A DNA stretch of 64,000 bases from Patescibacteria group bacterium (GTDB taxonomy: Bacteria > Patescibacteriota > Minisyncoccia > UBA6257 > GWB1-50-10): positions 2,836 through 66,835 of the forward strand of contig JAMCYI010000001.1 of assembly GCA_023474215.1 (NCBI GenBank). Reading direction: 5' to 3'. Shown in pieces: positions 22,051 to 26,788 of this stretch; positions within the stretch are counted from its first letter, which is position 1; each line of letters begins with the position of its first letter. Below the pieces are notes generated by a model, which worked only from the letters and a program-made list of their open reading frames with translations, searched no databases and was not told the origin of the DNA. A program made the position numbers and the translations under genes.

Positions 22051-24051
22051 ATGGTGAAAATACAAATAAACAAAGAGAAGGAAACGCCAAAAAAAGAGCC
22101 GAAACGAGAATCAAAAGAAGAGCCGAAGAAGGCCGAAAAGCCGAAAGAAAAGGAAGCTTCATACAGCGCGAAGAGCATTTATGTTTTGGAAGGCCTTGAA
22201 CCGGTCCGAAAGCGTCCGGGCATGTACATCGGCTCCACGGGCGTCGACGGCCTTCACCACTTGATCTGGGAGGTCGTCGACAACTCCATCGACGAAGCGA
22301 TGGTCGGCTACGCTAAAAATATCGTGGTCGAGCTCTTGAAGAACAACCGCGTCGCCGTCACCGACGACGGCCGCGGCATCCCCGTTGATATCCATCCGCA
22401 AACCAAGAAATCAGCCCTCGAAACGGTTTTAACGACGCTCCATGCCGGCGGCAAATTCGGCGGCGATTCGTACAAGGTTTCCGGCGGTCTTCACGGCGTC
22501 GGCGTCTCGGTCGTGAACGCTCTCTCGACGTGGCTCCGCGTCGAAGTTTACCGCGACAACACGGTCTACTTCCAGGAATACAAGCGGGGGAAACCCGAAT
22601 TCGCCGTGAAGAAGAACGGCAAATCGACCCACACGGGAACGAAGGTCATTTTTGACGCAGACCCGGAAATCTTTCAAAAAGTGGAATACGACCGGAAGCG
22701 GATCATCGATCACCTCCGTCAGCAGGCATATCTCACGAAAGGCGTCCGCATCACGGTCGTCGACGAGCGGGGGGACGAGCCATACCGCTATGGTTTCTAT
22801 TTTGACGGCGGATTGAAATCGTTTTTGAGCTACTTGGTGGACGGCGAAACGCCCATCCAAGACGAATTCTTTTACGTCCATAAAACATACCAGGACATCG
22901 AGGTGGAAGCGGCGATCACGTATATCGACGATCAAGAAGCGAGGGAATTGAGCTTCGCGAACAATATTTATACATCCGACGGCGGTATGCACTTGACCGG
23001 CCTTCGATCGGCCATGACGAGAAGTTTGAACGATTATGCAAAGAAAGAAGAATACATTAAGAACGGCGATGACGGCTTGACCGGCGACGATATTCGGGAA
23101 GGGGTCGTTTCGATCGTTTCCATCAAGATCCATGAACCGCAGTTCGAAGGACAAACGAAAGCGAGACTCGGCAATCCCGAAGCAAGGACGGTGGTCGAGT
23201 CGGTCGTGAACGAAGCCCTGAAAGAATTCTTGGAAAAGCATCCGCAGGACGCGAAAAAGATCATTGAAAAAAACCTGATCGCCGCGAAGGCCAGGAAAGC
23301 GGCGAAAGCGGCGAAGGACACGGTCCTCCGGAAGGGGGCGCTCGAAGGATTGACGCTGCCCGGCAAACTCGCCGACTGCTCGTCCCGGAAGGCCGAAGAA
23401 TCGGAACTTTTCATCGTCGAGGGAGATTCGGCCGGCGGCTCCGCCAAACAAGGACGCGACCGGAGATTCCAAGCGATCCTTCCGCTCCGCGGCAAGATCA
23501 TGAACGTGGAAAAATCGAGGATCGACAAAATGCTCGTCAACAAGGAGATCCGCTCGCTCGTGATCGCCCTCGGAACCGCCATTTCCGAAAATTTCGACAT
23601 CTCGAAACTCCGCTACCATAAGATCGTCATCATGACGGATGCCGATGTCGACGGTGCGCACATCCGGACGCTGCTTTTGACCCTCTTCTACCGCTACTTT
23701 CCGAAGATCATGGAAGACGGCTACATTTACATCGCCCAGCCGCCGCTTTTCCGCGTCCAAAAGGGGAAAGAATTCCAGTATGCCTACAGCGACGGTGAAC
23801 GCGACAAGCTCATCAAGAAGATGGGCGGCGACGGCGTTTCGATCCAGCGCTACAAGGGCCTCGGGGAAATGAACCCCGAACAGCTGTGGGAAACAACCAT
23901 GAATCCAGCGACGCGGCTCATGAAAAAGATAGCCATTGACGACGCCGTCGAAGCGAATCGCATGTTCGACATTTTAATGGGGGAGCTTGTCGAACCGCGC
24001 AAGAATTTCATCCAAGCGAACGCCGTTTACGCAAAAAACATCGATATTTAG
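22051..24051 (+). CDS. gyrB: DNA gyrase subunit B (K/E-rich N-terminal extension)
   Basis: YSAKSIYVLEGLEPVRKRPGMYIGST, HHLIWEVVDNSIDE, TOPRIM and C-terminal domains. Confidence 0.95.
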   Translation: MVKIQINKEKETPKKEPKRESKEEPKKAEKPKEKEASYSAKSIYVLEGLEPVRKRPGMYIGSTGVDGLHHLIWEVVDNSIDEAMVGYAKNIVVELLKNNRVAVTDDGRGIPVDIHPQTKKSALETVLTTLHAGGKFGGDSYKVSGGLHGVGVSVVNALSTWLRVEVYRDNTVYFQEYKRGKPEFAVKKNGKSTHTGTKVIFDADPEIFQKVEYDRKRIIDHLRQQAYLTKGVRITVVDERGDEPYRYGFYFDGGLKSFLSYLVDGETPIQDEFFYVHKTYQDIEVEAAITYIDDQEARELSFANNIYTSDGGMHLTGLRSAMTRSLNDYAKKEEYIKNGDDGLTGDDIREGVVSIVSIKIHEPQFEGQTKARLGNPEARTVVESVVNEALKEFLEKHPQDAKKIIEKNLIAAKARKAAKAAKDTVLRKGALEGLTLPGKLADCSSRKAEESELFIVEGDSAGGSAKQGRDRRFQAILPLRGKIMNVEKSRIDKMLVNKEIRSLVIALGTAISENFDISKLRYHKIVIMTDADVDGAHIRTLLLTLFYRYFPKIMEDGYIYIAQPPLFRVQKGKEFQYAYSDGERDKLIKKMGGDGVSIQRYKGLGEMNPEQLWETTMNPATRLMKKIAIDDAVEANRMFDILMGELVEPRKNFIQANAVYAKNIDI

Positions 24052-24762: not shown

Positions 24763-25128
24763 ATGGAAAAATTCAACGACATCATAGAAAAGATCGAGAA
24801 GCTCTCGGTCATCGAACTTTCCGAGCTCGTCAAAGCGCTCGAAGAGAAGTTCGGCGTCTCGGCTGCGGCAATGGCCGTCGCGGGACCGGCGAACGGGGGA
24901 GCAGCCGCGGAGGAAAAGACCTCCTGGGGTGTGATGCTCAAAGCCGCCGGCGATCAGAAGATCAACGTCATCAAGGTCATCCGCGAAGCGACTGGCTTGG
25001 GCCTCAAAGAGGCTAAGGACGTCGCAGACGGAGCCCCGAAGCTCGTCAAAGAGGGGTTGAAGAAAGAAGAAGCCGAAGAACTCAAGAAGAAGCTCGAGGA
25101 AGTCGGCGCAACCGCGGAGCTGCAATAA
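24763..25128 (+). CDS. rplL: 50S ribosomal protein L7/L12
   Basis: [25 protein letters not shown]...[16 protein letters not shown]. Confidence 0.95.
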
Positions 25129-25149
25129 AAGCAGTTCAGTATATATCTA

Positions 25150-25190
25150 CCCTCCCAAGTTTCACGTTGAAATTTGGGAGGGTTTGATTT
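25150..25190 (+). terminator. rplJL operon terminator (ccctcccaa...ttgggaggg + TTTGATTT)
   Basis: long perfect stem followed by T-rich run. Confidence 0.7.
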
Positions 25191-25324
25191 AACTTTAAGG
25201 GTATCGGGCGTTTAGCGAGGTGGGTTGAAAGCAAATGGTTTTGCTTTCAACGGGCGAATTCTTTTGCTCAAATATACAACACTTCGCCCAGGAAGATCGT
25301 TGCGCACGCCCCGCGCCAAAAATT

Positions 25325-25396
25325 GCACCCTTAGTTTAGTGGTAGAACGTCGCATTCACATTGCGAAGATCGCAGGTTCGATCCCTGCAGGGTGCA
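25325..25396 (+). tRNA. tRNA-Val (anticodon CAC)
   Basis: cloverleaf: acceptor gcaccct/agggtgc, anticodon loop ttCACat, T-arm gcagg-ttcgatc-cctgc. Confidence 0.8.
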
Positions 25397-25419
25397 CAGC
25401 AATTTTGGTGCGGGGCAGG

Positions 25420-25458
25420 TTGCAAAGATCGCTGGTTCGATCCCAGCAACGCCCACCA
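25420..25458 (+). pseudogene. tRNA 3' fragment (anticodon-stem 3' half + variable + T-arm + acceptor 3' + CCA), homologous to 3' part of tRNA-Val, abutting ATG of next gene
   Basis: ttgcaaagatcgctggttcgatcccagcaacgcccacca aligns to ttgcgaagatcgcaggttcgatccctgcagggtgca; no matching 5' half. Confidence 0.45.
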
Positions 25459-26082
25459 ATGGATAACCTTTGCACCATCTACCTCGTAAGGCACGGAGAA
25501 TCGGAAGGAAACATCGGCAAGGTCGTTGGAGGAAATCCTGCCCTCACGGAAAACGGCAAAAAACAGGCGGCCAAAACGGCACAAAAACTGAAAGACGTTC
25601 GCTTTGACGCCGTTTTTTCTTCGAACCTCCTGCGAGCAAAGCAAACGGCAGAGATCATAGCCCTCGAAAAGAAACTCGCCGTCGAAACGCGGGATATCAT
25701 CCGAGAGCGGAGTTACGGTTCACTCGACGGGACGGACGCCGATAAGTTCGGGGAACTCATCAGGGAAGCTCGAGCAAACCTCGGCAAGCTCGCCGGCGCG
25801 GTGAAGTTCCACAATACCTACCCCGAAGGCGTTGAAAACAACATCGATCTTGCAAGCCGCATGATAACTTTTCTTCGGGAGATCGCATCGGCATATGCGG
25901 GGAAAACGGTCCTTGTCGTGAGCCATGGCGGGATCATGCGCGCATTCCTCATTCACCTCGGCTTCGGCACCTATCAAAATTTCAAATCGATGGACATTGG
26001 AAACACTGCCTTCGTGAAGATCGCGACCGACGGCGTTGAATTCAAAATACTCGAAACGGACGGCATCAAAATCCCCGCATAA
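25459..26082 (+). CDS. histidine phosphatase (phosphoglycerate mutase-like) family protein
   Basis: IYLVRHGESEGN RHG motif; SHGG near C-terminus. Confidence 0.75.
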   Translation: MDNLCTIYLVRHGESEGNIGKVVGGNPALTENGKKQAAKTAQKLKDVRFDAVFSSNLLRAKQTAEIIALEKKLAVETRDIIRERSYGSLDGTDADKFGELIREARANLGKLAGAVKFHNTYPEGVENNIDLASRMITFLREIASAYAGKTVLVVSHGGIMRAFLIHLGFGTYQNFKSMDIGNTAFVKIATDGVEFKILETDGIKIPA

Positions 26083-26155
26083 AAATTTGACAGGGCATCG
26101 ATCTAGTTATATAACAACAAGCGAGTTTCCGAGAACATTTACAAAGGAGGCATCG

Positions 26156-26533
26156 ATGATCGACGTCATTAACAAATACGAAGCCGGGGTGAAAAACCGG
26201 GAAATGTTCGAACTCTTTCTGAAAGAGTTCGAAGCGAAGCAGATTGGCATCTTGAACAGCGAAGAATTGTCCGATCCGCTCGCGACTCCGAAATTCGGAG
26301 AAGCGAAGGACGGGCAATTCCTTGCCATCGAGAAAGACGGAAAGATATTTATCTTTCCGAATCCCGCCGTGAAGGTCGACCGCGTGACCGTTGCCGAGCA
26401 AGAGACGATCTTTTTCGTCGACGTTCGGGAGATACGGCACGGACAATCATTTCATGTCGTGAAACCCGGCATCCTAAAAAGGGTCGACGGCTCGTTCGAA
26501 AGAACAGAGCGCGGGAGACTCTGTGTATACTGA
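26156..26533 (+). CDS. hypothetical protein (~125 aa)
   Basis: ORF with RBS-like aaggagg upstream. Confidence 0.4.
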   Translation: MIDVINKYEAGVKNREMFELFLKEFEAKQIGILNSEELSDPLATPKFGEAKDGQFLAIEKDGKIFIFPNPAVKVDRVTVAEQETIFFVDVREIRHGQSFHVVKPGILKRVDGSFERTERGRLCVY

Positions 26534-26548
26534 CTTCGCATAACGTTA

Positions 26549-26590
26549 TCCCGGATCCTGCACTCGCTGCGGAATCCGGGATACTTTTTT
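26549..26590 (+). terminator. terminator tcccggat...atccggga + TACTTTTTT
   Basis: 8-bp stem, T-run. Confidence 0.6.
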
Positions 26591-26670
26591 CTACAATTTG
26601 AAAGTGGGGAATCCCCACAAGTCAACTGTTGATAACTCATCACGAGAAAGTAAGATAAAACCTAATGAAT

Positions 26671-26692
26671 CCGCCAATATGGCGGTTTTTTT
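26671..26692 (+). terminator. terminator ccgccaatatggcgg + TTTTTTT
   Basis: perfect hairpin + 7 T. Confidence 0.7.
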
Positions 26693-26723
26693 GTGTTGGG
26701 AGTGGTGGTATAATGGTACATAA

Positions 26724-26756
26724 GAGTGGTGAGAAGTGGATAAGTTTGTGGATAAC
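26724..26756 (+). promoter_or_regulatory. three GTGG(A) direct repeats at about 10-bp spacing upstream of mraZ; candidate MraZ operator, with TATAAT at 26709-26714
   Basis: gaGTGGtgag aaGTGGATAAg tttGTGGATAAc; resembles MraZ-box architecture. Confidence 0.55.
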
Positions 26757-26788
26757 TCGCCAATCTGGGGAAAACTGAGATTTTCAAC

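Follow-up and report, generated by a model that had tools for sequence, protein, structure and literature searches.

In a 64,000-nt stretch of the genome of a Patescibacteria group bacterium (contig JAMCYI010000001.1, positions 2,836 to 66,835 of the forward strand; hereafter the window), a complete tRNA-Val(CAC) gene is followed by an orphan tRNA 3' end that runs directly into the start codon of a histidine phosphatase gene. Comparison with the loci of relatives indicates, with a probability that we put at about 0.85, that the orphan piece represents the part of the resident tRNA-Val(CAC) gene that lay 3' of a split in its anticodon loop, and that the complete tRNA-Val is a replacement nested inside the split gene. 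This figure applies to the anatomy and the origin of the locus, that is, to a split resident gene with a nested replacement; how the insertion took place is much less certain. The split gene is referred to as the outer gene and the complete one as the inner tRNA. Loci of relatives, designated by L numbers, were collected by way of two anchor genes, rplL and that of the phosphatase; homologues of His_Phos that are distant, at about 53% identity, were of no use as comparison loci, because they were not syntenic. The features of the locus, in positions of the window, are as follows.

25149 to 25183, + strand: terminator-like hairpin after rplL, with 16 pairs in the stem and a T-rich tail behind it; bounds the locus on the left, given for context only
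25206 to 25215, + strand: 5' end of the outer tRNA-Val (GGGCGTTTAG), the acceptor 5' strand GGGCGTT with T8, A9 and G10; 10/10 identical to the intact allele
25216 to 25298 (83 nt), + strand: block in place of the outer D arm, with two stems; common to L011 and L013
25299 to 25307, + strand: outer G26, anticodon-stem 5' strand TTGCG and CAC remnant (compare GTTGCATTCAC in intact alleles)
25308 to 25321, + strand: left arm of the putative cassette, GCCCCGCGCCAAAA, directly after CAC; 14-nt inverted repeat with 25403 to 25416
25325 to 25396, + strand: inner complete tRNA-Val(CAC) with no encoded CCA (ARAGORN, end at 25396/7; Rfam tRNA, 71.6 bits)
25403 to 25416, + strand: right arm of the putative cassette, TTTTGGTGCGGGGC, downstream of the inner tRNA; inverted repeat of the left arm
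25420 to 25458 (39 nt), + strand: orphan fragment, corresponding to outer tRNA-Val positions 38-73 and CCA; 36/36 identical to the intact allele
25459 to 26082, + strand: His_Phos_1 (histidine phosphatase) gene, the ATG of which abuts the CCA of the fragment

The fragment matches another tRNA-Val allele

An earlier note on this DNA had described a CCA-ending tRNA 3' piece lying 23 nt (25397-25419) behind a tRNA-Val and abutting the next ATG, which was confirmed. The piece consists of T38, the 3' strand of the anticodon stem (TGCAA), the variable loop (AGATC), the T arm (GCTGG-TTCGATC-CCAGC), the 3' strand of the acceptor stem (AACGCCC), an A and CCA. It was not called as a tRNA by ARAGORN, and an Rfam scan of 24900-25700 at E ≤ 10 matched the tRNA model to the inner tRNA only, the other matches (nhaA-I, miRNAs and pieces of tmRNA) being at chance level. 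Folded alone as a minihelix, the fragment gave z-scores of -1.1 to -1.6 (-1.9 with the inner tRNA included), which is no evidence for an autonomous structure.

Over its 3' half the inner tRNA is identical to the fragment at 29/36 positions, and the two form a direct repeat of 29 nt at 90% identity, with the second copy 59 nt downstream. A 32-mer of the fragment was unique in the window and had 0 matches in shuffled sequences; the similarity between fragment and tRNA is far beyond chance. The alignment to the neighbouring tRNA on which the earlier note had relied is thus real, but the fragment is not a copy of that gene: the acceptor strands agree at just 3/7 positions, and the T stems differ by a compensated pair. 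By contrast, intact tRNA-Val genes of relatives have a 3' half that agrees with the fragment at 36/36 positions as far as the discriminator (37/37 by BLAST). When one genome per species and a metagenome collection were scanned with a 27-mer and a 24-mer of the fragment, matches outside the clade of the window lay only inside intact tRNA-Val genes with the anticodons CAC, TAC or GAC. These matches, together with the mismatches in acceptor and T stem, demonstrate that the fragment comes from a tRNA-Val gene other than the adjacent one.

That the fragment has no 5' half adjacent to it had been stated correctly; the 5' remnant lies upstream of the inner tRNA. Positions 25206-25215 are 10/10 identical to the start of the intact tRNA-Val genes of L024, L034, L039 and L041, and the flank before them, ...AAGGGTATC (...GGGTATC), is the same as in L024, which identifies the position as orthologous. 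The acceptor strand at 25206-25212 is complementary to 25448-25454 in the fragment, and the TTGCG strand within 25299-25307 pairs with TGCAA at 25421-25425. The insert that follows the CAC remnant comprises 112 nt, 72 of them tRNA, and the inner and outer genes are paralogous (59/72 identical). A z-score of -6.9 was obtained for the predicted fold of the RNA of the locus. From its sequence, the inner tRNA-Val(CAC) at 25325-25396 appears to be the working gene, which would now supply tRNA-Val(CAC).

The 83-nt block that stands in place of the outer D arm has two stems, the first a perfect hairpin of 12 bp (25224-25251) and the second formed by 25252-25263 with 25278-25289. Its first 16 nt, CGTTTAGCGARGTGGG, also occur in a distant Parcubacteria locus, L016 (about 885-937, - strand). 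Next comes, in both places, a perfect hairpin, of 12 bp in the window and about 10 bp in L016, the two being unrelated in sequence, and after it CGGG.AAT; the ends are kept and the hairpin varies.

The spacer that holds all these elements extends from the rplL stop at 25128 to the phosphatase ATG (25129-25458, 330 nt). The same 330 nt were found in 10 contigs from independent assemblies (MEGAHIT, SPAdes, JGI), and an assembly artefact is therefore excluded.

Uninterrupted and nested tRNA-Val genes in relatives

In L024, L034 and L039 a single uninterrupted tRNA-Val(CAC) gene, GGGCGTTTAGTTCAGTGGTAGAACGTTGCATTCACATTGCAAAGATCGCTGGTTCGATCCCAGCAACGCCCA, was found after the rplL terminator and the same left flank, and L041 carries the same uninterrupted gene with one difference in the T loop (GATTCC for GATCCC). 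The order in L024 is rplL, terminator, ...GGGTATC, intact tRNA, CCG and the His_Phos ATG (...GCCCA CCG ATGGATAA). As this intact tRNA adjoins the ATG of the same phosphatase gene, the abutment of tRNA 3' end and start codon is ancestral and older than the insertion. The rplL protein of L039, an empty site, is identical to that of L038, which is occupied. Occupied sites are those of the window, L011/L013, L015, L038, L023 and L016; empty ones are L024, L034, L039 and L041. The empty sites carry the allele of the fragment in uninterrupted form and not the allele of the inner tRNA. The earlier note had advised comparing related genomes for an element integrated between two copies. The comparison instead yielded this uninterrupted gene of the fragment type, and just 23 nt separate the copies in the window.

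The nested arrangement recurs among the relatives. L015 consists of a complete outer 5' half, the arm CCCCGTTAGATTT, AT, a complete tRNA-Val(CAC), CAGA, the arm AAATCTAACGGGG, CAGGCAT, a complete outer 3' half, CCG and ATG. The outer body is nearly intact in this locus (29/30 in the 5' half), and once the inner tRNA had been masked, ARAGORN in intron mode recognised a full outer tRNA, its anticodon loop interrupted by 110 nt; for the 185-nt RNA the predicted fold is a cloverleaf on a cloverleaf (z = -5.0). In L038 (rplL 86% identical) the same outer allele is split after TTCAC by the arms CCCCATTGCAAATT and AATTTGCAACGGGG, with another tRNA-Val(CAC) allele inside. The outer gene of L038 has lost its D arm and the 5' strand of its T arm, its T loop holds a second palindromic insert, and its 3' end (...AACGCCCACCA) abuts the ATG of truB. 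L023, from Brennerbacteria, has a tRNA-Val(GAC) nested in a tRNA-Val(GAC). In L016 (760-870, - strand) two stacked tRNA-Val 5' halves stand before a complete tRNA-Val(CAC). Each ends in TTCAC, with a CC-rich leader that ends in T behind it, and no 3' halves are left; this looks like repeated nested insertions followed by one deletion.

L011 and L013/L014 present the locus of the window in a more decayed form, with two mismatches in the acceptor pairing of L011, and in L012 an inner-type gene stands alone, fused to ATG. Of the L013/L014 spacer (111-435, compared with window 25129-25458), the first ~125 nt equal the window and the rest resembles L011; the spacer is a recombinant, or mosaic, between lineages with phosphatases only 80% identical. 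Inner alleles were also found as simple resident genes, the window type in L032 (71/73, BLAST) and the L011/L013 type in L012 (72/72).

In every nested case, and thus in at least four lineages, the break lies at the same position of the anticodon loop. The junction motifs CA/CCCC... and ...GGGGCA[A/G]G are conserved, the latter being common to the window, L015, L038 and L023. In these same loci (4/4) the arms are complementary with 12-13 Watson-Crick pairs, which were tabulated by script since MAFFT could not hold the arms in register. Helices of leader and trailer comprise 14 pairs in the window, 13 in L015 and 9 in L038 (13 with one mismatch), compared with 4-8 in simple loci. The arms of L015 and L023 are 25/26 identical although cargo, target and lineage differ, which argues that the arms resemble the ends of an element and do not reflect lineage-specific covariation of an RNA. 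G-U pairs gave contradictory evidence, with one G-U (+ strand) in the window and one A-C, a G-U on the - strand, in each of L038 and L023, so that selection on RNA and symmetry of DNA are not separable by this means.

Small palindromes without a tRNA were also observed near these genes. A second small palindrome, with CCCCGTAG...GGGG ends and without a tRNA, is inserted in the outer T arm of L023 (120-335) and of L038 (2745-2810); the loop of the one in L038 contains GCGAAGC. The spacers between rplL and the tRNA in L038 (1870-2640) and L039 (1870-2815) are crowded with perfect hairpins, and GCGAAGC or GAAGC is the loop of many of them (GTATGGGAGCGAAGCTCCCATAC is one example); they look like a family of small palindromic repeats.

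State of the outer gene

By sequence, the outer gene appears to be dead as a tRNA. After in silico removal of the insert, the outer genes of the window, L038 and L023 gave 0 tRNA calls; that of L015 was called only with an anticodon loop of 9 nt, in which no Val anticodon is in register. In the window the first 10 nt and the last 36 nt of the outer gene are unchanged, the anticodon loop is destroyed and 83 unrelated nt replace the D arm. With clear tRNA homology and no complete cloverleaf, the outer remnant would be classed as a tRNA pseudogene or gene remnant. ARAGORN in intron mode called only the inner tRNA in the unmasked sequence of the window. When the inner tRNA was masked or shuffled, a 99-nt 'tRNA-Lys' with a 154-nt intron was reported, which was rejected as an artefact because its 3' splice site lay inside the shuffled filler. 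The supposition that tRNA scanners would not fold the fragment as a complete tRNA accordingly held.

An outer gene that still works, with the inner tRNA released by RNase P and RNase Z and the outer halves then joined, or held together by the arms as a split tRNA, is highly improbable. The almost intact outer body of L015 and the strong predicted folds of outer and inner RNA in L015 and in the window would fit such a gene, and group I introns in anticodon loops, at 35/36, are common in Patescibacteria tRNA genes (PMC13011429). However, Rfam found no group I intron core in 24900-25700 at E ≤ 10, and no bulge-helix-bulge was present at the junctions in the predicted folds of the window and L015. 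What the folds have there is a 13-14 bp helix after an internal loop of 3x4 nt (window) or 6x7 nt (L015), rather than 3-nt bulges flanking a 4-bp helix. Moreover, no outer gene yields a 7-nt anticodon loop with NAC once the insert is removed, the D arm is replaced in the window and deleted in L038, and the 3' halves are absent from L016.

Origin of the nested locus

The earlier note had taken the two tRNA 3' ends for an att duplication or for the scar of an excised element. An element with a tyrosine-type integrase that integrated at the 3' end of tRNA-Val, and perhaps was excised, would leave attL and attR as direct repeats, and both the 29-nt repeat and the recombinase genes linked to tRNA-Val loci in relatives are in line with this. 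This explanation is nevertheless very unlikely. The poor agreement of the acceptor strands, the compensated pair in the T stem and the full identity of the fragment to another allele do not fit a duplicated end; the 5' remnant that matches the fragment is found upstream of the inner tRNA, the gene is broken in the anticodon loop, and the 23 nt between the supposed repeats contain the right arm of the palindrome that encloses the inner tRNA, which itself appears to be the inserted DNA. No element or scar lies between the two copies; the inner tRNA sits between the 5' and 3' remnants of an older gene. What stands of the original proposal is its general part, mobile or recombining DNA at a tRNA gene as the likely cause, while the att and scar specifics are unsupported. 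An origin without any insertion, from three tandem tRNA-Val copies of which the first lost its 3' half and the third its 5' half, is extremely improbable. Tandem tRNA genes are common and the inner and outer genes are paralogous, but both breakpoints would have to fall on one anticodon-loop position in at least four lineages; the outer halves belong to a single allele with mutually pairing stems, the inverted arms lie exactly at the breakpoints, and single-copy empty sites exist.

For the split resident gene with a nested replacement, the following course of events may be envisaged. A cassette of about 110 nt would have split the resident gene of the order rplL - tRNA-Val - His_Phos in its anticodon loop, immediately 3' of the anticodon (position 35/36 to 36/37). 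Between its left arm and its right arm, the cassette would hold a complete second tRNA-Val(CAC) with a short leader before it and a short trailer behind it. It would have arrived by site-specific insertion of a small mobile unit, and elements with a gene for a large serine recombinase may have been its mobiliser or its source. If the outer halves were later deleted, the cargo would remain as the new resident gene in simple form; L012 and L032 have the look of loci at that stage, and the simple resident cargo alleles found there fit a deletion of this kind after insertion. The locus would then represent tRNA gene replacement by way of a nested intermediate.

Recombinase genes beside tRNA-Val were seen in two different lineages. 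Open reading frames (ORFs) for large serine recombinases are convergent with tRNA-Val(CAC) in L032 (2493-3791, - strand) and in L016 (43-753, + strand), with stop codons inside the 3' end of the tRNA-Val gene. The two proteins are homologous (33% identity, E 5e-30; Pfam Recombinase and Zn_ribbon_recom), and the L032 copy is without the N-terminal part of the catalytic domain. This tail-to-tail arrangement points to a recombinase link for the cassette. Taking these observations together, we tentatively suggest, at less than even odds, a family of very small, palindrome-ended mobile cassettes in Parcubacteria-type bacteria of the candidate phyla radiation (CPR) that inserts specifically just after the anticodon of tRNA-Val genes and brings its own tRNA-Val with the same anticodon, a module of the dead gene perhaps being kept as a cleavage signal. 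Disruption may be made harmless by replacement and not by splicing or rebuilding, with large serine recombinases as possible mobilisers. If true, repeated rounds would give rise to 'Russian-doll' loci, as in L016, and to rapid allele turnover of an essential tRNA gene.

Several results weigh against the nested replacement by a mobile cassette. As the earlier note had stated, no integrase is nearby: no recombinase was found among the called genes within 3 kb on either side, tyrosine integrases not having been searched for beyond that distance, and tBLASTN with the large serine recombinase of a relative gave no match in the 64-kb window. Between the arms of the window and the flanks of the L032 recombinase only chance 8-mers and no sequence link were detected. 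There is no second copy of the arms or of the junction motif in the 64-kb window, and multi-copy behaviour was not seen. A free or autonomous cassette was not found either, with 0 matches in viral contigs to the joined arms (a putative attP), the inner tRNA or pairs of tRNA and fragment. The complementarity of the arms could stem from RNA selection or from palindrome-correcting mutation. The window, L011 and L013 share the 83-nt block yet differ in their inner alleles, which requires cassette exchange or recombination between lineages. Lastly, the window, L011, L013 and L015 agree at 27-28/28 positions in a 28-nt module made up of the T arm, the acceptor strand and CCA, where the rest of the outer gene is rearranged and identity at third codon positions next to it is just 44-68%; such conservation is unexpected for an old neutral remnant. 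Possibly the insertions are recent and the conservation was inherited from a working gene. The 83-nt block common to the window, L011 and L013 argues against recent insertion, unless it was spread by recombination, which is possible with L013 being a mosaic.

In viral contigs, four matches to the arm motif were inspected and rejected as chance matches, since they lie inside coding regions without tRNAs.

The fragment beside the start codon

The surviving pieces of the dead tRNA (both acceptor strands, the T arm and CCA) may have been kept by selection as a tRNA-like processing module, where cleavage next to the AUG by the nucleases of tRNA maturation would produce a nearly leaderless His_Phos mRNA. 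This proposal concerns present function and is compatible with the origin from a split gene; we regard it as possible but, on the sequence evidence, unlikely. Besides the conserved 28-nt module, it is favoured by the ancestral state in L024, with a tRNA 3' end already next to the same ATG, and by four different genes that start 0-6 nt after a tRNA-Val 3' end: His_Phos, truB (L038) and hypothetical genes in L030 and L034. In addition, no sigma-70-like promoter was predicted between the rplL terminator and the phosphatase ATG, neither for the tRNA nor for His_Phos, a negative that is uninformative for CPR bacteria. On the other side, the conservation would merely be inherited if the insertions are recent, the 5' strand of the T arm is lost in L038 and two acceptor mismatches occur in L011. 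The lack of a Shine-Dalgarno motif at the phosphatase was considered as a sign of special translation and rejected, as GGAG, GAGG or AGGA was found 4-20 nt upstream of the start in only 7/51 long ORFs of the window. Shine-Dalgarno use is low in this genome, which makes its lack here unremarkable.

The ATG at 25459 is the true start of the phosphatase gene, because the catalytic RHG motif then falls at residues 11-13 of the protein. In the window CCA is directly followed by ATG, and start codons lie 0-6 nt from a tRNA or tRNA-like 3' end in L012, L015, L024, L030, L034 and L038.

The sites where a tRNA end meets a start codon were located at 2998-3003 in L012, 2531-2537 in L030, 2515-2523 in L034 and 2820-2825 in L038; in L012, CCA and ATG have their A in common. 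The phosphatase of L013 (320-1042, P0002) is annotated with an N-terminal extension of 33 residues that starts inside the tRNA-Val gene, and that of L015 is annotated 25 residues too short. Both mis-calls arise because the tRNA remnant is unannotated. Nested tRNAs are invisible to standard annotation, and starts of neighbouring genes are mis-called.

Comparison with known systems

tRNA genes are well-known landing sites for mobile DNA. At integrase att sites in tRNA genes, islands and prophages duplicate a 3' segment of the tRNA, with sublocations in the anticodon loop and the T loop; the elements carry only the tRNA segment distal to the crossover, rebuild a chimeric gene and leave one orphan piece that repeats the functional gene. 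The present locus shares with them a tRNA target, a break at a symmetric stem-loop (the anticodon arm), an orphan piece beside a functional tRNA and recombinases linked in relatives. It differs in that both halves are orphaned, in that the insert brings a whole, different tRNA-Val allele and is only about 110 nt long with inverted ends, and in that the linked recombinases are of the serine type. In archaea, Nanoarchaeum-type tRNA halves have complementary leader and trailer, and introns are bounded by bulge-helix-bulge motifs. Archaeal split tRNAs likewise come as 5' and 3' halves, and the sequences next to the split form a helix, whereas here the host is bacterial, no bulge-helix-bulge is predicted and the halves decay on one transcript around another tRNA.

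Miniature inverted-repeat transposable elements (MITEs) resemble the cassette in being short, in having terminal inverted repeats with conserved tips (here CCCC...GGGG) and the same ends with different content (L015 and L023), and in the presence of occupied and empty sites among relatives; smaller palindromes with CCCCG...GGGG ends lie in the T loops of L023 and L038. Unlike MITEs, the cassette has a functional tRNA gene as cargo and one specific tRNA-Val position as target, multiple copies were not observed in the window, and there is no clear target-site duplication beyond 1-2 nt.

Known ways to keep a tRNA functional after insertion are to rebuild it from a 3' segment borne by the element or to splice out an intron. 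The locus and its relatives suggest a third, in which the resident gene is killed and a full replacement is delivered within about 110 nt. If true, this would explain why close relatives can differ strikingly in the allele of one tRNA at one position and why tRNA scanners leave half-tRNAs in CPR genomes, and it would show the stepwise replacement of an essential tRNA gene.

The group I introns of Patescibacteria (PMC13011429) occur in the same phylum, also insert in the anticodon loop at or next to 35/36 and also cause the gene to be missed by standard scanners. In contrast to these introns, no ribozyme was detected here, the insert is too short, the exons restore no tRNA, and function would be rescued by a replacement gene and not by splicing. 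An ORF start codon directly after a tRNA or tRNA-like 3' end recalls mitochondrial tRNA punctuation; the host here is bacterial, the tRNA-like unit is a remnant, and its processing is putative. Punctuation of polycistronic transcripts by tRNAs is a general principle (10.64898/2026.07.30.741833), and the locus, if the reading holds, would offer a testable case of a bacterial mRNA start defined by a tRNA-like structure. A limited literature search found no description of nested or split bacterial tRNA genes of this kind.

Genomic setting

The gene order in the window is gyrB - rplJ - rplL - 330-nt spacer - His_Phos_1 gene - hypothetical gene - mraZ - rsmH - PBP gene, and the nearest named relatives by rplL are Jorgensenbacteria and Brennerbacteria. 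The gyrB gene of the window (22051-24051, 666 aa) is without an intein, whereas gyrB of L030, L032 and L039 contains one (Pfam Intein_splicing, about 1,080-1,100 aa). The genes just downstream of the phosphatase (window 26083-26788) vary among strains with an identical phosphatase: a Peptidase_M50 gene is located there in L001 and L004-L008 and is absent in the window and L002, and a Ser_hydrolase gene is found in L003.

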